64,000 nt of DNA, taken from NCBI GenBank assembly GCA_027486795.1, contig JAIXOI010000057.1:26896-90895 (forward strand), read 5' to 3'. Of this stretch, positions 636 to 54,218 are shown one piece after another (position 1 is the first letter of the stretch; each line of letters opens with the position of its first letter). The stretch is from Sphingobacteriales bacterium. Lineage in GTDB: Bacteria; Bacteroidota; Bacteroidia; Chitinophagales; CAIOSU01. The notes below the pieces were generated by a model, which saw only the letters and a program-made list of their open reading frames with translations, searched no databases and was not told the origin of the DNA. The position numbers and the translations under genes were made by a program.

Positions 636-3515
636 TTAGGTTATTTGGGTCTTTTTTTCCTTTTTTGGTTTCTCTTTAGTAAACAAGTTAGCGGTATATT
701 TTTCATATAGTTCAAACAAAAAAACCATTCGGTTGGCATCACTAGTAAATGCCTGTGCTCTGTATGCCAAGTCCACAGCCTTATCCAATTCGTTATGTGC
801 TTTTACCAAAGTTGGTGGCATGGTCGTTGGGTCATATAGGTCGGCCAAAGAGCTATTAGGAAACTGCGTCCTTACATCTAATACTTTGTGCGCAGCAGCT
901 TCAATTGCTTTTATTTGTTTTTCGCTTGGGTTTTCGGGCCAAGGGAAGTTGTTGTACACAATATCTTTTGAATAGCGAAAATCACTTTTTAGCCGTCCAC
1001 AAACAGTTTTTACCCATGCCATGTGCAAGCTAGACATTAGCACCCCGAAGTGATACAATTTTCCGTTTGGCATTATTAAATTACCATTAGTTGAAATGGT
1101 ATTTTTATCTATGAAGCCCATTGGAATAAATTTTCTTCTTTCCGAGGAAACTACTGGGATAACTAAGCATCGTTCAGGATTATTTGTTTCTCTAAAAAGA
1201 GTAGGCGGAAGGTTTTGCATACCTTTATCGGTGCTATTTAATCTGTCAATTCTGACACGATTAACTCGTTCCATTACTAAAGGCATTTTTCTTAACTCAT
1301 TTGGTGGACAATCAACCAACCAAAGACAGTGTCGCTTTCTGTTATTGATAAATTCATCAGCACCAATTAATAGTTTTATCCATTTTTCTGCATTTGGCTC
1401 CTTGGATAACAAAAGCGCTAAGTCTTCTTCCTCCACGATTAAGCCTTCACTCTTCGCGTAATAATTTCCCTTTATGATTTCTGGAGCACTACAGATTGGC
1501 TTTTTCTTTTTTTCAACCAACAAATCTTTCGCATCAATCAAATAAGCATTGATATTCTTTGCCTTAATTTCATGGGCCTCGCCTTTAATATCCTCATAAT
1601 CAAAAATAAACTTGTTCATTGTATCATTGTTTGCGAAGCCAACTATGATACAATAAACCGCAGCATTTCCTTTGGCTTCATTATTCCATTTAAAAGTACG
1701 ATGGGCAAAATGAATTTTAATGCCGTATTTGTTTTGTAAAACACCCCAAAGTAAATGAGTCTGTTCACCTTGTACAATAGAATTTGTAGAGACGAATGCA
1801 ACTCTAATTTGGGTACCTTGTATATATTTGGCAGCCTTAATGTACCAACCTGTAACATAGTCGAGCGTGCCTCCACCTCCTACATTTCCATATAGTTTTC
1901 CAATTTGGTCACGTTGATATTGTTTCATTATATTGGACCCAATGAACGGTGGGTTGCCTATTATAAAGTCAAATTTCGTTTCATTTAATGGTTCCGGTTT
2001 ACCTTTATGTACTGAAAAAGATTCTACCTGAACATTTACTTTCCCATACTCTTGAGCAGGTTCGTTGACTATATAAACATTGGCATGCTTTGCTACAACG
2101 TCAATAGTATTAACTGGGTTTAGCAACGTTTGCCACTCAATTTCTAAAGCATCGCCATGCACTATAGTTGCGGCTTTTTTGAGTGGTAACCTTACAAAAT
2201 ATTGCCCAAATTCATTGCTAATTTGCATATTCATTTGGTGGTCAATTAGCCACATAGCTACTTCGGCAATCCGTGCCGGAAACTCTTCATACTCTATGCC
2301 ATAAAACTGATCAACATCCAGCCAAATTATTTCTCTAACGTCAAGAAAACCTTGTCCATCTTTGTTCAGCTTGCGCAATATAGCCAACTCTAGAAGCCTC
2401 AGCTCACGATAAGTTATTATCAGAAAATTGCCACAACCACAAGCAGGGTCAAGAAACTTTAGGGTGCTTAACTTTTTATGAAATTCGGGAAGTTTGTTTT
2501 TGTTGTCTTTTATACTTTCAAATTCTTTCCAGAGATCGTCCAAAAAAAGTGGTTTGATGAGCTTCAAGATATTGGTTTCGCTGGTGTAGTGCGCTCCTAA
2601 GTTTCTGCGCTCTTTGGGGTTCATTACGCTTTGAAACATTGACCCAAAAATTGCTGGTGATATCTTACTCCAGTCAATATAGCAACAATCAAGCAAGGCT
2701 TGACGCATCTTTGTGTCAAAGCTTGCCGTTGGCAGGTTTTCTTGAAAAAGCTTTCCGTTTACATAAGGAAAGTCGGCAAGTTGTTCGTCAAGATTTTTAA
2801 ACCGATTTTCTTGTGGCGTGTTTAACACTTGAAAGAGTTCTTGCAATTTTGATGCAAGGTCGCTACCGTCAATATTGGTTCGTTGTTCAATATATTCTTG
2901 AAACTGTTGCTTGTTGAAAATTGTAGTGTCTTCAGCAAACAAACAGAACAAAATACGAACCAAGTAAACTTCTAAAGGGTGTCCAGTATATCCAATTTCT
3001 TCGAGCCTATCGTGTAATTTACCCATTAACTCAGCCGCCCGGATGTTTGCTGGGTCCTGCTCTTTGTAAACTTTTTTCTGGTAGCCAATTAAGTAACCGA
3101 AATGCTGAACATTATTTACAAGGTCTTTAATTTTAAATTCAACTGTCTTTGATTCTTCCTGGTCATACAATCGGAAGTTTTCAAAGTCAGAAACAAGTAT
3201 GTATTTCGGAAGTTCGTGTTCTTTTAAACCGTGCAAATATTCTTTGGCTTGCTCAAAAGCCTTATCCAGGTTTTTGCCCTTGCTTTTCATCTCAACCAAA
3301 ATCATACCCTTCCACAGCAGGTCAATGTATCCATCTTTTTCACCTAGTTTCTTTACCCTATGCTCAAATGTTGAAACCCTTTTGCTAGTGATATCAAAAA
3401 CTTTGAAAAACTCAACCAAAAACGGTTTGGCGTCAGCCTCTTCATTTGAAGTATCTGCCCATTCATTGGAGAAATTTAATGCTCTACTTTTTATCTCGTT
3501 CCAACTTAAAACCAT
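636..3515 (-). CDS. MmeI-family type IIG/IIL restriction-modification enzyme (fused endonuclease, N6-adenine methyltransferase and target recognition domain)
   Basis: 959 aa. The N-terminus, MVLSWNEIKSRALNFSNEW...AKPFLVEFFKVF, is near-collinear with MmeI as I recall it. It has the PD-(D/E)xK-like D...EMK motif (IDLLWKGMILVEMKSKGK), SAM motif I (FLDPACGCGNFL), catalytic motif IV (NPPF) and a long C-terminal TRD. Confidence 0.9.
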   Translation of the reverse strand: MVLSWNEIKSRALNFSNEWADTSNEEADAKPFLVEFFKVFDITSKRVSTFEHRVKKLGEKDGYIDLLWKGMILVEMKSKGKNLDKAFEQAKEYLHGLKEHELPKYILVSDFENFRLYDQEESKTVEFKIKDLVNNVQHFGYLIGYQKKVYKEQDPANIRAAELMGKLHDRLEEIGYTGHPLEVYLVRILFCLFAEDTTIFNKQQFQEYIEQRTNIDGSDLASKLQELFQVLNTPQENRFKNLDEQLADFPYVNGKLFQENLPTASFDTKMRQALLDCCYIDWSKISPAIFGSMFQSVMNPKERRNLGAHYTSETNILKLIKPLFLDDLWKEFESIKDNKNKLPEFHKKLSTLKFLDPACGCGNFLIITYRELRLLELAILRKLNKDGQGFLDVREIIWLDVDQFYGIEYEEFPARIAEVAMWLIDHQMNMQISNEFGQYFVRLPLKKAATIVHGDALEIEWQTLLNPVNTIDVVAKHANVYIVNEPAQEYGKVNVQVESFSVHKGKPEPLNETKFDFIIGNPPFIGSNIMKQYQRDQIGKLYGNVGGGGTLDYVTGWYIKAAKYIQGTQIRVAFVSTNSIVQGEQTHLLWGVLQNKYGIKIHFAHRTFKWNNEAKGNAAVYCIIVGFANNDTMNKFIFDYEDIKGEAHEIKAKNINAYLIDAKDLLVEKKKKPICSAPEIIKGNYYAKSEGLIVEEEDLALLLSKEPNAEKWIKLLIGADEFINNRKRHCLWLVDCPPNELRKMPLVMERVNRVRIDRLNSTDKGMQNLPPTLFRETNNPERCLVIPVVSSERRKFIPMGFIDKNTISTNGNLIMPNGKLYHFGVLMSSLHMAWVKTVCGRLKSDFRYSKDIVYNNFPWPENPSEKQIKAIEAAAHKVLDVRTQFPNSSLADLYDPTTMPPTLVKAHNELDKAVDLAYRAQAFTSDANRMVFLFELYEKYTANLFTKEKPKKEKKTQIT

Positions 3516-5456: not shown

Positions 5457-6809
5457 ATGAGATTGCTCATAGTTGCGTTCGCCATTCTGGTTAGCCAGAA
5501 CATTCTATTTGCCGGAGCCGGAAACCGCAAATTAATTTCGGGCCCTATGCAGGGCCACACTACTGCCACCTATACCAATATGTGGATTTTGGTTCAAGAT
5601 GCAGGCATGGCTTCGGTTACGCTTATTGACACTTTAACTGGCGCGCGCTACACTACTATGCTCAAAACAGAGGGCAATGCAGTATATGAAGATTATTTTG
5701 CACTCTTGTTTGAGTTTAACGATTTGCCAACCAACCATGTGTACAGGGCCGAGATAACCGTTGACAGTGAACATTACGAAATTGACCGTATTTACCATAC
5801 CGCTAAGACCAATGTAACCGATACCTATCGTTTTATGGTTACCTCATGTGCACTTACCGTGCCTGTTGGTCTGCGTTGGTTGCACCCAGGAATTGAGGAT
5901 AGAACGTACAAACATGTGGTAAAAACCGAAGCCGATTTTAATCTTTGGATTGGGGATTATTTATATTATTTCCCAAAACACTACAAATCGCCCGAAAATA
6001 TGGCTGCGCATTGGGTATGGAAACGGAAAAGGAGGCTTATCGCCAAATTTACCGAAAGCATGCCCCAATATAGTATTTGGGACGACCATGAGTACGGATG
6101 GAACGATGCCGACGCCAGTTTCATTTTCAAAGAGCAATCGCTCAATTTATTCACTAAATACTGGGCAAATCCGGCCTACGGCACTCCTGAGACACCGGGT
6201 TGTTTCTTTAAGTTCGATTATCTCGATTCAGAGTTTTTTATGCTCGACGACCGATATTATCGCACCCAACCCAGTGATAGCATCCCTACAGTTTTAGGTA
6301 CTGGGCAAATGGCTTGGTTTAAACAGAATCTCAAACAATCAAAGGCCGTATTCAAATTCATTAGCATAGGCAGCCAAGTATTCAATCAACTTTCAGAGCA
6401 TGAATGTTATTGGCAATTCAAAGACGAATTGGGCGATATTATCAAATTCATTAAGGACGAGAATATAAGCGGAGTTATCTTCCTAACCGGAGATAGGCAT
6501 CATAGTGAGGTATTGAAACTGGACGTGGAGGGCAGTTACCCATTGTATGAGTTTACCAGCTCGGGCATTACCAGTTTCCGACGTCGCACCCGCAGAACTG
6601 CTGAAAGTGAAAATCCAAATCGCATTCCGGGTACTTTGGCCGATTACCAAAATTATGGCCGCGTAACTATTGAGGGCGAAACGGGCAACCGTGTTTGTTT
6701 AATGGAGATCTTCGATAACCGTGGCAAGCAGGTTTGGGAGTACCGCATTAATCAAAACGAACTTACTGCCAAACCTAGTAATGGAAATGTGCCAGTGAAG
6801 GTGGAGTAG
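5457..6809 (+). CDS. PhoD-like alkaline phosphatase / metallophosphatase
   Basis: Signal peptide, then WDDHEYGWNDAD and FLTGDRHHSE metallophosphatase motifs in a PhoD-like arrangement. Confidence 0.7.
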   Translation: MRLLIVAFAILVSQNILFAGAGNRKLISGPMQGHTTATYTNMWILVQDAGMASVTLIDTLTGARYTTMLKTEGNAVYEDYFALLFEFNDLPTNHVYRAEITVDSEHYEIDRIYHTAKTNVTDTYRFMVTSCALTVPVGLRWLHPGIEDRTYKHVVKTEADFNLWIGDYLYYFPKHYKSPENMAAHWVWKRKRRLIAKFTESMPQYSIWDDHEYGWNDADASFIFKEQSLNLFTKYWANPAYGTPETPGCFFKFDYLDSEFFMLDDRYYRTQPSDSIPTVLGTGQMAWFKQNLKQSKAVFKFISIGSQVFNQLSEHECYWQFKDELGDIIKFIKDENISGVIFLTGDRHHSEVLKLDVEGSYPLYEFTSSGITSFRRRTRRTAESENPNRIPGTLADYQNYGRVTIEGETGNRVCLMEIFDNRGKQVWEYRINQNELTAKPSNGNVPVKVE

Positions 6810-9428: not shown

Positions 9429-9454
9429 GGTTCCGAGTTGCGGGTTACATTTTA

Positions 9455-9520
9455 GCCCCTTTAGGGGCGTAAAGTTGGTAACTATTGAAACAACAAATAG
9501 TCCATAATCCCTTTAGGGAT
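9455..9520. repeat. Two REP-like hairpins upstream of the RAYT gene (GCCCC-TTTA-GGGGC and ATCCC-TTTA-GGGAT)
   Basis: Hairpins at 9455-9468 and 9507-9520 share a CCC-TTTA-GGG core. Confidence 0.7.
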
Positions 9521-9565
9521 GATACATACACAACACTTATAAGTGCACTTAAACCAAAATTGCAC

Positions 9566-10027
9566 ATGGCAAATACCTACACTCAAATCCATTTGCAGAT
9601 TGTCTTCGCGGTTAAATACCGAGGTGCTATAATTGACAAGACCTGGAAAGAAAATTTGTACCGTTATATAACTAGAATTGTTCAGGCCAATAACCATAAG
9701 CTTTTGGCTATAAATGGAATGCCTGACCATATTCATTTATTTGTAGGAATGCGACCAACTCAATCCGTTTCTGATCTATTGCAAGATATAAAAGGTAGCT
9801 CCTCAAAATGGATTAACGATAACAAACTGGTAAAAGGTAAGTTTGAATGGCAAGAGGGCTATGGAGCTTTTTCTTACGCAATATCACAAATTGATGATGT
9901 CATTAAGTACATAAACAACCAAGAAGAGCATCATAAAAACAGGTCTTTTCGGGAGGAGTATTTAGCATTTCTGCAGAAATTCAAGGTAGATTATAATGAG
10001 CTGTATATTTTTAAGGATTTGGTTTGA
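9566..10027 (+). CDS. REP-associated tyrosine transposase-like protein (IS200/IS605 Y1_Tnp family)
   Basis: MANTYTQIHLQIVFAVKYR..., HUH motif (PDHIHLFVGM), and a C-terminal Tyr region (WQEGYGAFSY...YINNQEEHH). The start was moved to the ATG at 9566 because the upstream part of the tracked ORF covers the hairpins. Confidence 0.8.
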   Translation: MANTYTQIHLQIVFAVKYRGAIIDKTWKENLYRYITRIVQANNHKLLAINGMPDHIHLFVGMRPTQSVSDLLQDIKGSSSKWINDNKLVKGKFEWQEGYGAFSYAISQIDDVIKYINNQEEHHKNRSFREEYLAFLQKFKVDYNELYIFKDLV

Positions 10028-10077
10028 TTTTAATGCATATCACATCCAGTTATGGTTATGCCCGCAATAAGTGTGTG

Positions 10078-10142
10078 CCGCCCCTACAGGGCGGTGTGTT
10101 ATGGTCATTGACTTTTCTACCAACATTTCGTCCCTGTGGGAC
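10078..10142. repeat. Two REP-like hairpins downstream of the RAYT gene (CCGCCC-CTACA-GGGCGG and GTCCC-TGT-GGGAC)
   Basis: Hairpins at 10078-10094 and 10130-10142, of the same CCC-loop-GGG type as the upstream pair. Confidence 0.7.
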
Positions 10143-10157
10143 TTTTGCATGTTATTT

Positions 10158-10235
10158 CCAACTCGGAATTCGCAACCAGTAACCCGCAACTACATTTTTT
10201 CGAACTCGCAACCCGTAACTCGCAACTCGTAACTA
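10158..10235 (+). repeat. Heptamer-periodic array, G[CT]AACNC family (two blocks of 5 units)
   Basis: CCAACTC GGAATTC GCAACCA GTAACCC GCAACTA (10158-10192), then CGAACTC GCAACCC GTAACTC GCAACTC GTAACTA (10201-10235), ending 10 nt before the prfA ATG. Confidence 0.85.
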
Positions 10236-10241
10236 TCTTTG
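10234..10241 (+). promoter_or_regulatory. Candidate -7 promoter box TATCTTTG, 4 nt before the prfA ATG
   Basis: Exact TAnnTTTG. The same TATCTTTGCCC string is found upstream of rpsL. No -33 TTTG at canonical spacing. Confidence 0.4.
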
Positions 10242-10245
10242 CCCC

Positions 10246-11319
10246 ATGCTAGAGAAACTAGAACAATTAAAGAACAAGTGGGAAGACCTAGAGCAGCGCC
10301 TTTCAGATCCGTCGGTATTGTCTGACCAGAAGCGCTTTAAGCAGGTGAGCAAAGAGTATAAAGACTTAGGTGTAATAGTAGCTGCGTATAGAAAGTACAA
10401 AAACGTAATGGACAATATCCGGAGCAATAAAGAACTACTGCGTACCGAAAAAGATGAAGAGTTTAGGGAAATGGCAAAGCTCGACCTTGCCGAGTTGGAA
10501 ACACAGCAAGAGGAAATGGAGGCAGATATCCGTATGCTTTTGGTGCCGAAAGACCCAGAAGATGAGCGCGATGTGATGGTGGAGATACGCGCCGGAACAG
10601 GTGGCGACGAGGCCGGCATTTTTGCCGCCGATCTTTTTCGCATGTACACCCGCTTTTTCGATTTGCAGGGATGGAAGTATGAAGTGTTGAACGAAAGCCC
10701 AGGAACCTTAGGTGGCTACAAAGAGGTAGTAATGGAAGTAATCGGCGATGAGGTGTATAGCGTTATGAAGTATGAAAGCGGGGTGCACCGTGTGCAGCGT
10801 GTGCCCGCTACTGAGTCGCAAGGCCGCATACACACCTCGGCTGCATCGGTGGCTGTAATGCCAGAGGCTGATGAAGTAGATGTGCACCTCGACCCTAAAG
10901 ACATTAAAGTAGATACTTTCCGCAGTAGCGGTGCAGGTGGCCAGCACGTAAACAAAGTGGAATCGGCAGTGCGGATGACACACATGCCTACCGGTATAGT
11001 AGTGGAGTGCCAAGCAGAGCGCAGCCAGATAAAGAACCGCGAATCGGCAATGAAGAGTCTGCGTACCAAGTTATATGAAGTTGAGTTGGAAAAGCGCAAT
11101 GCCGAAGTGGCAGCAAAGCGCAAAACCCTCGTTTCAACTGGCGACCGTAGTGCCAAAATACGCACCTACAACTACCCGCAGGGGCGCATTACCGACCACC
11201 GAATCGGCTTTACGAGCTACAATTTACCCGATTTTATGGGAGGTAACATCAACGAAATGATACAAGCGCTGCAATTGGCCGAAAATATGGAGAAACTCAA
11301 GGCTGGCGGACTAGCTTAA
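10246..11319 (+). CDS. prfA: Peptide chain release factor 1
   Basis: GGQHVNK motif, an RF1-type PxT tripeptide (RVPATESQGRIHTS), and a length of 357 aa. Confidence 0.95.
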   Translation: MLEKLEQLKNKWEDLEQRLSDPSVLSDQKRFKQVSKEYKDLGVIVAAYRKYKNVMDNIRSNKELLRTEKDEEFREMAKLDLAELETQQEEMEADIRMLLVPKDPEDERDVMVEIRAGTGGDEAGIFAADLFRMYTRFFDLQGWKYEVLNESPGTLGGYKEVVMEVIGDEVYSVMKYESGVHRVQRVPATESQGRIHTSAASVAVMPEADEVDVHLDPKDIKVDTFRSSGAGGQHVNKVESAVRMTHMPTGIVVECQAERSQIKNRESAMKSLRTKLYEVELEKRNAEVAAKRKTLVSTGDRSAKIRTYNYPQGRITDHRIGFTSYNLPDFMGGNINEMIQALQLAENMEKLKAGGLA

Positions 11320-11439
11320 TTTTACCATTGTTACCAATTGAACCTTTCCTTTCATTGCAACCTTATAGAGGTTAACGCGTTCTTATTGAGTATCGTGTTC
11401 TGATTCAGAATCCTTAACTTTATCCTTCCAAAATAGCTT

Positions 11440-16144: not shown

Positions 16145-18298
16145 ATGGCACGCGATTTAAGATTCACAAGGAACATAGGTATTGCCGCTCACATTGATGC
16201 GGGCAAAACTACTACGTCTGAGCGTATCCTGTATTACACAGGTTTAACGCACAAGATTGGTGAGGTGCACGATGGTGGCGCTACTATGGATTGGATGGAG
16301 CAAGAGAAGGAACGTGGTATCACTATCACTTCGGCGGCTACTACCACTTTCTGGAAATTTCCTACCGAGCAAGGTAAGGCTCTACCAGAAACTAAAGAAT
16401 ACAAGATTAATTTGATTGATACTCCAGGACACGTTGACTTTACCGTAGAGGTTGAGCGCTCATTGCGTGTATTGGATGGCATGGTTGGTTTGTTCTGCGC
16501 CGTTGGTGGTGTTGAGCCTCAATCAGAAACAGTTTGGCGTCAAGCTAACCGCTACAAAGTGCCACGTATCGGTTTCGTAAATAAAATGGACCGCGCTGGT
16601 GCCGACTTCCTTGAAGTAGTTCGCCAGGTTCGTGTTATGTTGGGTGCGAACCCAGTTCCACTTCAGTTGCCTATTGGTGCTGAGGATGATTTTATCGGTA
16701 TCATTGATTTGGTAAAACGTAAGGCTTACTATTTTGACGAGGCCACCCAAGGTATGACCTATAAAGAGGAAGAAGTTCCTGCTGATATGGAAGCCGAAGT
16801 TGACGAATGGCGCGAGAAAATGCTTGAGGCCATCGCCGAATACGACGATACTTTGATGGAGAAATATTTCGAGGACCCTAATTCAATTAGCGACGCCGAA
16901 ATTAATGCTGCTATCCGTAAGGCAGTCATCGACATGAGCATCATCCCGATGTTGTGCGGTTCTGCTTTTAAAAACAAAGGCGTGCAAGCCATGTTGGATG
17001 CAGTTATTAAGTTCCTTCCTTCTCCTATGGATGTTGAAGCCGTAATGGGCATCAACCCTAAGAATGATCTTGAAGAGCCACGCAAACCAGATGCTAAAGA
17101 GCCTTTCGCTGCCCTAGCATTTAAGATTGCTACCGATCCGTTTGTAGGTCGCTTGGCTTTCTTCCGTGTGTATTCTGGTTTCCTTGATGCGGGTTCGTAC
17201 GTATTGAACAGCCGTAGTGGTAAGAAAGAGCGTATCAGTCGTATTTTGCAGATGCACTCTAACAAGCAGAACCCTATCGATCGTATCGAAGCGGGTGACA
17301 TTGGTGCAGCGGTAGGTTTCAAAGAAATCCGCACCGGAGATACGCTATGTGATGAGAAGTTCCCGATTGTGTTGGAGAGCATGACCTTCCCTGAGCCAGT
17401 TATCGGTTTGGCTATTGAGCCTAAAACTCAGGCTGATGCTGATAAGTTGGGTATGGGCTTGAGCAAGCTTGCTGAAGAGGATCCTACCTTCCGTGTGAAC
17501 TTTGATGACGAAACTGGCCAAACCGTTATCAGCGGTATGGGTGAGCTTCACTTGGAAATCATTGTTGACCGTTTGAAACGTGAGTTTAAAGTAGAAGTAA
17601 ACCAAGGTGCTCCACAGGTTGCTTACAAAGAGGCAATTACCAAAACTGTGAAACACCGCGAAACATACAAAAAACAAACTGGTGGTCGTGGTAAGTTTGC
17701 CGACATCCAATTCGAGATTGGCCCTGCCGACGAAGAATGGATGAAAGAGAACCCAACAGGTCTGCAGTTTATCAACGATATTTTTGGTGGTTCAATTCCT
17801 CGTGAATTTGTTCCATCTGTAGAGAAAGGTTTCAAAGAAGCCATGAAAACTGGTGTATTGGCCGGCTACCAAATGGATACAATGAAGATTCGTTTGTTTG
17901 ACGGTTCATATCACGATGTCGATTCAGATGCGTTATCGTTCGAGCTGTGTGCCCGTATCGGTTACCGTGAGTCTGCCCGTAAAGCTGGTGCACAATTGTT
18001 GGAGCCAATCATGAAATTGGAAGTTATCACTCCTGAAGAGAACACAGGTGACGTAGTAGGCGATTTGAACCGCCGTCGCGGTATGATGGAAGGCATGGAA
18101 ATCAAAAACAATGCCCAGTACATCAGAGCTAAGGTGCCTCTAAGCGAGATGTTCGGTTATGTAACCCAGTTGCGTACCCTAACATCAGGACGTGCCACTT
18201 CGATTATGGAGTTTAGCCACTATGCCCCAGCACCAAATAACGTTGCTGAAGCAGTAATGGCGAATGCAAAAGGTAAGAAAGTATCAATAGAAGATTAA
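16145..18298 (+). CDS. fusA: Elongation factor G
   Basis: [32 protein letters not shown] and NKMDR GTPase motifs; 717 aa. Confidence 0.97.
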
Positions 18299-38697: not shown

Positions 38698-38720
38698 TGG
38701 TGTAAAGGTAGAAAATATTG

Positions 38721-38752
38721 AGACACAAGACACAAGACATAAGACACAAGAT
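38721..38752. repeat. Heptamer array AGACACA AGACACA AGACATA AGACACA AGAT
   Basis: Period 7. 38721-38738 is the exact reverse complement of 38831-38848 (18 nt). Confidence 0.9.
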
Positions 38753-38785
38753 TTGTTGCGTTGTAGCAAAATTTGTTCAAAGCAA

Positions 38786-38828: not shown

Positions 38829-38831
38829 TAG

Positions 38832-38863
38832 TCTTGTGTCTTGTGTCTGAAATCTTGTGTCTA

Positions 38864-38866: not shown

Positions 38867-40248
<1,382 letters not shown>

Positions 40249-51037: not shown

Positions 51038-51049
51038 GAAACAAATATA

Positions 51050-51084
51050 GTATCAAGTAGTGAGTATCAAGTATCAAGTACTAG
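51050..51084. repeat. Heptamer array GTATCAA GTAGTGA GTATCAA GTATCAA GTACTAG
   Basis: Period 7, starting 13 nt upstream of the radA start codon (51037, minus strand). Confidence 0.85.
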
Positions 51085-54112: not shown

Positions 54113-54125
54113 GGAGGGGTTTACA

Positions 54126-54146
54126 GGTTGAGGGTTACGAGTTGCG
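54126..54146. repeat. Heptamer array GGTTGAG GGTTACG AGTTGCG (inverted G[CT]AACNC family)
   Basis: GTTACGAGTTGCG (54134-54146) is the exact reverse complement of 10221-10233. The array lies 14 nt upstream of the CoA-transferase ATG and is followed by TTTTCAAATTT (54149-54159), an octamer-family word. Confidence 0.8.
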
Positions 54147-54218
54147 TGTTTTCAAATTTAAAGATTCATAACGAATACTAGTCACTATTCACTAACAACT
54201 ACTTACTTTGTAACAATC

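Follow-up and report, generated by a model that had tools for sequence, protein, structure and literature searches.

Enzymes of the HUH/Y1 type are understood through two models, the transposases of the IS200/IS605 insertion sequences (IS) and RAYTs, or REP-associated tyrosine transposases, with their repetitive extragenic palindromes (REPs) and REPINs. The ends of an IS200/IS605 element, such as IS608 or ISDra2, lie on one strand. Two or more inverted REPs flank a RAYT gene (Nunvar 2010, PMC2817692). TnpAY1 subclass 1.2, an orphan when it was defined in 2018, has an IS200-like sequence but shows no IS behaviour and had no known DNA partner. Its members carry the signature DH[IV]H, WQ and YIKNQKEHH (Y---Q--HH), have a median length of 148 aa and occur in Cyanobacteria and Bacteroidetes at an average of 1.7 copies per genome; copy number is low, paralogues are only about 36% identical, and the proteins are IS200-related but without IS properties, with the entry "REP: no" in Table 1 of that study (Quentin 2018, PMC6006769). 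Here we describe a Y1 gene in a 64-kb stretch of DNA from a Sphingobacteriales bacterium (contig JAIXOI010000057.1, positions 26,896 to 90,895; the whole stretch is called the window), where it stands between a hypothetical gene and prfA and is flanked by mirror-image hairpin arms. We consider it probable, from sequence comparison, that this is a resident single-copy subclass 1.2 enzyme, an IS200-like HUH/Y1 single-strand nuclease-ligase with its own DNA sites, in the manner of a REPtron. A protein subclass reported without partner repeats seems, at the level of sequence, to have such repeats.

One further described group should be mentioned. As described in Bertels 2017 (PMC5581495), "IS200 Group 3" clusters with IS200, has no duplicates and no members on plasmids, and is RAYT-like in the words of that paper, with abundant 16-mers at its flanks (21 occurrences). 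This group and the family treated here may be one and the same.

Hairpin arms of the Y1 gene

Perfect hairpins of the form NNCCC-loop(3-5)-GGGNN number five in the whole 64 kb and four of these flank the Y1 gene, whereas shuffles of the window contain 1.5 on average and 4 at most; the cluster around the gene is not a product of chance. Singly the hairpins are weak as single-stranded DNA (-3 to -8 kcal/mol), and only the one at 10078-10094 stands out by stability (-8.2 kcal/mol, z = -4.4). Their significance therefore derives from their clustering and conservation, not from their stability. The initial annotation had placed the gene, the four hairpins and a 13-nt inverted pair outside them correctly, and its description of a Y1 HUH gene with short flanking inverted hairpins, the layout of RAYTs, is borne out by the Pfam match (104 bits) and by conservation in relatives. 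It had not recorded that both outer hairpins bear an asymmetric conserved tail, 8 nt followed by GGTAA on the left and mirrored as CTACC on the right; on the plus strand the distal right unit reads CTACC (10117-10121), 8 nt and the hairpin GTCCC-TGT-GGGAC (10130-10142). The element proper spans about 9455-10142 (688 nt), with the gene between mirror-image arms of about 75-80 nt. In the list of open reading frames the gene appeared as a 180-aa frame opening at TTG, while relatives begin with MANTYTQ, which sets the start at 9566.

The relatives used for comparison are 80 loci from a scan of one genome per species, each on its own contig under a distinct isolate or strain title, whose Y1 proteins are 61-71% identical to that of the window. 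Upstream of their genes stands a hairpin with a CCC/GGG core, followed by 8 nt, GGTAG and an A run, and some 25 nt later comes a second hairpin, right before the start codon; the downstream layout is the exact mirror of this. An arm thus consists of a distal unit, in which a 5-bp GC-core hairpin, an 8-nt linker and a GGTAG tail follow one another, a spacer of about 25 nt and a proximal hairpin. A strict search found hairpin-plus-tail units in the expected orientation at 70 of the 80 loci. Anchoring on GGTAG only was chosen as a test unbiased towards pairing, and 79 of the 88 sites found in this way have a perfect hairpin of 4-5 bp at 7-9 nt upstream, against 3.8 in shuffles. The stems vary among genomes (GTCCC, ATCCC, GTTCC, GTGCC, GCGCC) and pairing is retained. 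By these comparisons the hairpin is shown to have been kept through changes on both sides of the stem, with the 8-nt spacing and the orientation rule fixed, and the arm architecture to be conserved around homologous genes across Bacteroidota.

A covariance model of the distal unit (model R1) was made from 56 of the relatives' units with the window left out; it was built on 4-nt-loop units alone (alignment A2), a MAFFT alignment (A1) having placed the loop gap at the 5' end. Run unfiltered over the window, it matched best at 10111-10144 on the minus strand (31.9 bits, E 1.7e-5), the distal right unit, and its second full-length match was the distal left unit at 9453-9487 on the plus strand (22.3 bits, E 0.0036). 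A partial match at the proximal left hairpin (9507-9524, 16.6 bits, E 0.084) was the sole other below E = 1, and the next after these three reached 10 bits. Since a model drawn from relatives alone matches the distal units of this gene, the four hairpins of the window are, on this evidence, two arms of the family. As in the RAYT layout, at least two inverted repeats flank the gene (the full-length matches just given), and ends that are mirror images of one another speak for the layout of RAYTs and REPs rather than that of an IS200 transposon. The left and right arms of the window, of the related loci L089 and L092 and of a gene-less copy in the locus L022 align over their full length (alignment A5). 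The tail of the distal left unit, GGTAA in the window, is GGTAG in L089, L092 and L220, position 9481 being different from L089, and the proximal left hairpin ATCCCTTTAGGGAT is identical in these three loci, and is thus common to both of the clades distinguished below.

Over the relatives' loci model R1 gave 287 matches in 1.22 Mb. When the 309 matches of an nhmmer version are sorted by distance from the gene, 156 lie within 150 nt, 106 at 150-500 nt and 38 at 500-2000 nt, so that 300 (about 97%) fall within 2 kb; the other 905 kb hold 9 (about 1 per 100 kb), and the enrichment near the gene is roughly a hundred-fold. Within 150 nt the units obey the orientation rule with 16 exceptions: 73 are upstream on the plus strand and 67 downstream on the minus strand, against 6 upstream-minus and 10 downstream-plus. 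Rfam holds no family matching the region of the window at E <= 1.

Family and motifs of the Y1 protein

The window protein passes the Pfam model PF01797 Y1_Tnp (104.2 bits against a gathering cutoff of 23, residues 5-119) and the NCBIfam IS200/IS605 transposase equivalog NF033573 (82 bits, cutoff 55), and fails NF047646, REP-associated tyrosine transposase or REP_Tyr_transpos (30.5 bits, cutoff 80). Its motifs are D54-H55-I56-H57, W95-Q96 and Y115 in YINNQEEHH (115-123). Among solved structures its best match is ISDra2 TnpA (2xm3, E 6e-8), followed by archaeal IS200 proteins and IS608 TnpA; Y115 and Q119 line up with the catalytic Tyr and Gln of the solved TnpA proteins, and no TnpA-REP chain was among the matches in the search of PDB chains. 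With the IS200 model passed, REP_Tyr_transpos failed, the Y---Q--HH motif and no TnpA-REP chain, the label "RAYT-type" that had been given to the protein has to be withdrawn. In a motif census of 94 homologues WQ was present in all, DH[IVL]H in 84, and YIxNQExHH predominated; every one has the Q form of the Tyr motif and none the class-2 Y---NP.

By the published motif signature the protein fits TnpAY1 subclass 1.2. At 153 aa it is close to the typical length of about 148, it has DH[IV]H, WQ and Y---Q--HH (YINNQEEHH, where the subclass consensus is YIKNQKEHH), and it shares the low copy number, the Bacteroidetes host and the non-IS behaviour: the exact protein was found in one locus context only, in 15 contigs with 100% identical DNA, and the relatives are labelled Bacteroidota. 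The ratio of nonsynonymous to synonymous divergence (dN/dS) of the gene is 0.15-0.23 against its close relatives L089 and L172, which indicates purifying selection. Judged by its sequence, the protein is a catalytically intact, IS200-like HUH/Y1 enzyme under purifying selection. In two loci of clade B the HUH motif has lost the usual hydrophobic middle residue, reading H-T-H in L092 (gene 10918-11379) and H-S-H in L220 (3919-4380), and in three other homologues a substitution has removed one His (DHIQ, DQVH); catalysis may be weakened in such lineages.

The departure from the subclass as described is that it is listed without REPs, yet inverted double-hairpin arms are found here and in the 70 relatives. 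The published REP search targeted tnpAREP-like genes by a descriptor that required GT[AG]G at a hairpin's 5' foot, and the section that describes this search does not state that class 1 genes were screened (Quentin 2018, PMC6006769). Hairpin-GGTAG units would not match such a descriptor as it is given there.

Local copying and dispersal of the arms

Arrays of units in both orientations lie beside the gene in many genomes, for example in L064, L083 and L077. Gene-less double-arm copies of about 170 nt are present in L022 (3678-3845, 8962-9125 and 9166-9330) and in L038 (20282-20459), the latter 10 kb from the gene; in the L022 copies the outer feet of the distal hairpins mark both limits of the similarity, and no flanking duplication is present. 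Unit identity averages 0.77 within a locus and 0.68 between loci, and 15% of the pairs within a locus, as against 0.1% of those between loci, are at least 90% identical. Taken as a record of past events, these sequences show that local copying of the arms has produced both tandem units and double-arm copies that lack the gene.

Units are also dispersed in some genomes, in many gene-less copies. A metagenome scan with the pattern of the window unit found at least 120 loci; of the matches listed, 110 of 120 lack a Y1 gene in the stretch retrieved, nearly all bear the G of GGTAG, which the pattern left unspecified, and many sit at contig ends. Metagenome copies sharing one exact core were aligned and had no common sequence outside the unit, which means that they are a mix of elements or organisms. 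In the contigs ERZ1066118/20 (about 60% GC, similar coverage) the doublet lies inside an element of about 183 nt with a 19-nt terminal inverted repeat ACGTGAGTTATGGGTTGTC. This element, found on L102, L105, L111, L114, L125, L153, L160, L162 and L218, encloses a GGTAG doublet with three hairpins, and 5-6 of 7 copies are flanked by 7-bp duplications (CAGTTTA, TAAAAAA, TAAACTG, AACATTA and others). The genome that holds it gives only weak protein matches and is not close to the source genome of the window.

Two repeats of other form were met in these loci. Tandem arrays that repeat about every 185 nt stand on both sides of the Y1 gene in L083 (9529-9830 and 10560-11100), each repeat containing a three-hairpin doublet made up of a unit, the central perfect palindrome CGTCCCGTACGGGACG and an inverted unit. 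When three relatives' loci were searched with Rfam, the sole recurrent match was the unrelated Flavo-1 motif, which in the Flavobacterium locus L011 lies at 1124-1205 (73 bits), 10609-10668 (59 bits) and 17538-17590 (35 bits, below the gathering score of 42); one match is about 150 nt downstream of the Y1 gene, and the motif appears to be a separate dispersed repeat that has nothing to do with the hairpin-GGTAG unit.

A possible enzyme and repeat partnership

By analogy with IS608 and ISDra2 TnpA and with the E. coli TnpA-REP protein, the enzyme would bind the hairpin in single-stranded DNA and read the linker together with GGTAG. Cleavage would take place at GGTAG through Tyr115 with the HUH metal site, after which the ends would be rejoined, and cutting and rejoining of this kind could multiply or rearrange the units of the arms. 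The system would then behave as a RAYT/REP "REPtron" and not as a self-copying insertion sequence, and the element would have stayed between the hypothetical gene and prfA since before the split of the two clades, being lost twice.

The likeness to the REPtrons of class-2 TnpA-REP (Nunvar 2010; Bertels & Rainey 2011; Ton-Hoang 2012) extends to a single-copy HUH/Y1 gene flanked by inverted hairpin repeats, unit clusters of alternating orientation beside the gene, gene-less inverted doublets elsewhere, vertical inheritance with occasional loss and a GTAG-containing motif next to the hairpin. There are differences from class 2, the RAYTs proper. The protein is on the IS200 side, with Y---Q and not Y---NP, and fails REP_Tyr_transpos; the hairpin has 5 bp, with GGTAG at 8 nt on its 3' side and no GT[AG]G at its 5' foot; and units are concentrated near the gene, with the low density elsewhere in relatives given above and none elsewhere in the window.

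Several points weigh against a functional partnership of this kind. We know of no biochemical activity for any subclass 1.2 protein, and it is by inference that we assign the binding, the cleavage site and the active strand. With model R1 no satellite unit beyond the gene's own arms was found in the 64-kb window, and 20 kb of L092 likewise contained none. Activity of the local copy is doubtful, and it may be inert, because the left tail is GGTAA (mutated with respect to relatives), the left unit scores 22 bits and there are no satellites. At the GGTAG-anchored sites the flank 5' of the hairpin is not conserved and holds no conserved IS608-style guide sequence, so that guide pairing with the cut site is not evident. 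The proximal hairpins, beside the start and stop codons, could serve expression. Dispersal of the ERZ element points to a different transposase, probably of the DDE type, because of its 19-nt terminal inverted repeat and apparent 7-bp target duplication, and the Y1 enzyme would not be needed for it. The listing of subclass 1.2 without REPs also counts here (Quentin 2018, PMC6006769).

That the partnership is general is a more tentative suggestion, to which we would give a little less than an even chance: subclass 1.2 proteins could be the enzymatic partners of a phylum-wide, undescribed class of inverted double-hairpin repeats in Bacteroidota, with REPIN-like gene-less doublets. A literature search on the unit sequence and related terms found nothing further of relevance. 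If the suggestion is true, a REP/RAYT-type partnership would exist a second time, in the part of the family tree to which IS200 belongs. Confirmation of the pairing would mean that such partnerships are not confined to the class-2 (RAYT) branch and that Bacteroidota gain a family of small structured repeats ignored by current annotation and assembly. Conserved, oriented and amplified, the hairpin-GGTAG arms give subclass 1.2 a candidate substrate that can be tested by oligonucleotide cleavage.

A different view would be that the gene is fully domesticated and that the hairpins are expression signals only, a 5' leader and terminators, and not DNA substrates. Signals of expression need no mirror symmetry with GGTAG at a fixed 8 nt on opposite strands, even though the proximal hairpins are near the start or stop codon in most relatives and the hairpin at 10130-10142 is followed on the plus strand by a T run, the only terminator-like match in a scan of the region. 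Nor would they amplify into arrays of both orientations beside a gene, or explain gene-less double-arm copies at distant loci and on metagenome contigs. Domestication would agree with a single-copy gene that is inherited vertically under purifying selection, as this one is, but we regard this explanation as unlikely. A sigma-70 promoter scan of the region found no sites, an uninformative result since Bacteroidota use promoters of another type.

History of the site

Because none of the 80 species-representative loci has a homologue of prfA or of the upstream gene, synteny was traced through homologues of the upstream gene found elsewhere. Protein identities give two clades. Clade A holds the window, L089/L090 (upstream gene 97% identical to that of the window, site occupied), the metagenome contig L172 (Y1 protein 94.8%, occupied) and L091 (upstream gene 95%), where the site is empty with a 67-nt spacer. 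In clade B the site is occupied in L092 (upstream gene 81%) and in L220 (79%), which branches outside L092 and L095, and is empty with a 187-nt spacer in L095 (80%). L099 (upstream gene 53%) has no element, and its upstream gene and prfA are 12 nt apart. Five sampled lineages thus have the element at this site, and in two the site is empty. The Y1 proteins are 95% identical between the window and L089, 89.5% between L092 and L220 (upstream gene 87%), and 76% between the window and L092 (upstream gene 81%, prfA 86%). This agreement of Y1 divergence with that of neighbouring genes argues for long residency, and the simplest history by parsimony would be one old arrival before the two clades split, followed by two losses. 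The initial annotation had proposed this junction as the place to look for an insertion, and had taken invariance in all relatives, together with a lack of further hairpin copies, as the outcome that would overturn it. The outcome is mixed: the 64 kb do lack extra copies, but the site proves polymorphic among relatives and gene-less copies are numerous in other genomes.

The two losses differ in extent. L095 retains the sequence on both sides of the arms and the arrays, so the edges of its loss lie near the outer hairpin feet, although a divergence of about 10% prevents them from being placed to the nucleotide. In L091 the deletion took the arms together with the inner heptamer arrays. Both would fit enzyme-mediated excision or hairpin-stimulated deletion of a quasi-palindrome equally well.

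Synonymous divergence (dS) is low in the Y1 gene. Against L089 it is 0.08 in this gene and 0.38-1.08 in four flanking genes, and against L172 0.13 compared with 0.46-0.98, which is 4-6 times below the four neighbours in both comparisons; dN is similar or higher. Over longer distances the synonymous sites of the Y1 gene are saturated. It may be that the occupied allele was exchanged between lineages recently, or that there is constraint at the nucleotide level. Slow evolution is reported for two RAYT groups (Bertels 2017, PMC5581495).

Such low dS would also fit the recent arrival of an ordinary, currently active IS200-type element of about 700 bp carrying tnpA only, with the hairpins as its left-end and right-end recognition structures. 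The sequence and solved structures closest to the protein are those of IS200-type TnpA proteins (subclass 1.1; IS608, ISDra2), with HUH, Tyr and Gln aligned; the IS200 equivalog model is passed, the 688-nt size is suitable, short subterminal hairpins are present, and both the presence or absence of the element among relatives and the edges of the segment missing from L095, near the outer hairpin feet, would be expected of a mobile element. IS200, on the other hand, is multi-copy and near-identical, with end hairpins on the same strand, whereas this element is single-copy at a fixed site with mirror-image ends. No set of near-identical copies turned up in the sequence searched: the exact protein is at one locus only, the window has one copy, and a second Y1 copy was found within none of the 80 relatives' loci (about 20 kb each), in agreement with the low copy number and dissimilar paralogues published for the subclass (Quentin 2018, PMC6006769). 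The asymmetric tails lie on opposite strands and show the ends to be inverted, and the same site is used in two clades with divergence that follows host genes, where parsimony favours two losses. An active IS200 element is in our opinion improbable.

Heptamer repeats and the 13-nt inverted pair

The reading of the element as a resident enzyme with its own arms leaves the 13-nt inverted repeat outside these arms to be accounted for. The 13-mer AGTTGCGGGTTAC at 9436-9448 has its exact complement at 10179-10191; in the window it matches exactly at 2 places and with no more than 2 mismatches at 5 others, where 1.6 would be expected, and the heptamer dimer AACYCGYAACYCGY has 8 matches against 0.18 expected. 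The repeat is composed of AACYCGY heptamers, and heptamers of this family stand directly upstream of further start codons that have no Y1 gene near them, at 54130-54150 in the window and at 6391-6418 and 9130-9150 in L092, where the family without a Y1 gene spans 6240-6418. In L096 they occur at 1396-1423, just 3' of the stop codon of the upstream-gene homologue. Whether a site is occupied or empty, the prfA-proximal array is conserved. The unit does lie inside an inverted pair of heptamer arrays, as had been stated, and it is this position within host repeats that gives rise to an apparent 13-nt terminal repeat. The inverted repeat of the initial annotation is thus real, but it does not close the unit; on the sequences compared, it is host context and not an element terminus, with a small doubt left by the similar terminal repeat of the ERZ element.

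An outer inverted repeat above the level of shuffles was found in 4 of 36 two-armed loci (35 relatives and the window), namely the window, L081 and two A-rich cases, the sequences being unrelated; as a feature of the family it was rejected, being absent from most relatives. The repeat of L081, TAATTTTGATGTGCTGG, is a 17-nt exact inverted repeat (about 27 nt imperfect) that lies some 50 nt outside each arm and is unlike that of the window. It hints that Y1 elements may sit inside pre-existing palindromes. A speculative extension would be that the elements favour, or help to create, palindromic sites of heptamer repeats.

Very improbable is a mobile unit bounded by the 13-nt repeats (9436-10191), with the Y1 gene and hairpins as cargo of another transposase: the loss of left arm, element and array R1 together in L091, and the resemblance of the ERZ repeat, with its 7-bp duplications, to GAGTTGCGGGTTAC of the window are as it would predict, but the L091 state is equally expected from hairpin-stimulated deletion of a long quasi-palindrome, neither element-specific terminal repeats nor a target-site duplication were found around the window element (flanks GGTTCCG and ACATTTT), most relatives have no outer inverted repeats, heptamers precede other genes where no element is present, array length varies among the window, L089, L092 and L220, and L095 lost the element yet kept both inner flanks and the arrays.

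Table 1. Positions in the window of the Y1 gene, its hairpin arms and the adjoining heptamer repeats
Feature	Position	Strand	Remarks
Left heptamer arm, GTTCC GAGTTGC GGGTTAC	9430..9448	+	Holds the 13-mer (9436-9448); host AACYCGY/GRGTTRY repeats outside the Y1 element; missing at the empty site of L091
Distal left unit	9455..9481	+	Hairpin GCCCC-TTTA-GGGGC (9455-9468), 8-nt linker GTAAAGTT, tail GGTAA (9477-9481)
Proximal left hairpin, ATCCC-TTTA-GGGAT	9507..9520	+	Inner hairpin of the left arm; followed by GATACA
Y1 HUH gene	9566..10027	+	153 aa, stop codon included in positions; fits TnpAY1 subclass 1.2 (IS200-like) by Pfam, NCBIfam, PDB match and motif census
Proximal right hairpin, CCGCCC-CTACA-GGGCGG	10078..10094	+	Inner hairpin of the right arm
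Distal right unit	10117..10142	-	Hairpin GTCCC-ACA-GGGAC, linker GAAATGTT, tail GGTAG; mirrors the distal left unit
Right heptamer array R1, AACTCGG AATTCGC AACCAGT AACCCGC AACT	10159..10191	+	Contains the complement of the 13-mer (10179-10191); gone with the element in L091
prfA-proximal heptamer array R2, AACTCGC AACCCGT AACTCGC AACTCGT AACT	10203..10241	+	Host, promoter-proximal; kept at occupied and empty sites

Other features of the window and of related loci

Directly after array R2, 4 nt upstream of the ATG of prfA, stands TATCTTTG (10234-10241), which fits the Bacteroidetes -7 promoter consensus TAnnTTTG (10234-10248 region). Its placement suggests that prfA may have a very short leader or none, and the arrangement is the same in L091, L092, L095 and L220.

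A described but unexplained class of heptamer repeats stands just upstream of start codons (MacGregor 2015, PMC4679880; Mrazek 2007, cited in the same paper). It includes TAACTGA repeats near the start codons of Beggiatoaceae, Cyanobacteria and five Bacteroidetes. Like them, period-7 arrays of the window, among them the AACYCGY ones at 10203-10234 and 54130-50, lie a few nt from start codons; they differ in sequence, and inverted pairs with a locus-specific heptamer are not described in PMC4679880. Period-7 arrays number 49 in 1.2 Mb of the Bacteroidota loci, against 7, 18, 16 and 1 for periods 5, 6, 8 and 9. On the contigs with the ERZ element there are about 26 per 100 kb, many as inverted pairs, and some copies of that element lie within heptamer arrays.

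In the window the heptamer differs from locus to locus (AGACACA, TGGTTAT, AGTATCA, AACYCGY), and several arrays form inverted pairs. They are located at 38718-38753 with 38831-38860, 40150-40213 with 40222-40243, 51049-51080 and 54120-54150. The pair at 38.7 kb encloses a terminator-like hairpin, and the arrays at 40150-40243, 51049-51080 and 54120-54150 are a few nt from the start codons of minus-strand genes ending at 40147, 51037 and 54112. About 6 kb upstream of the Y1 locus, the gene calls for L001 place an MmeI-family restriction-modification fusion gene of 959 aa on the minus strand (about 636-3515 of the window).

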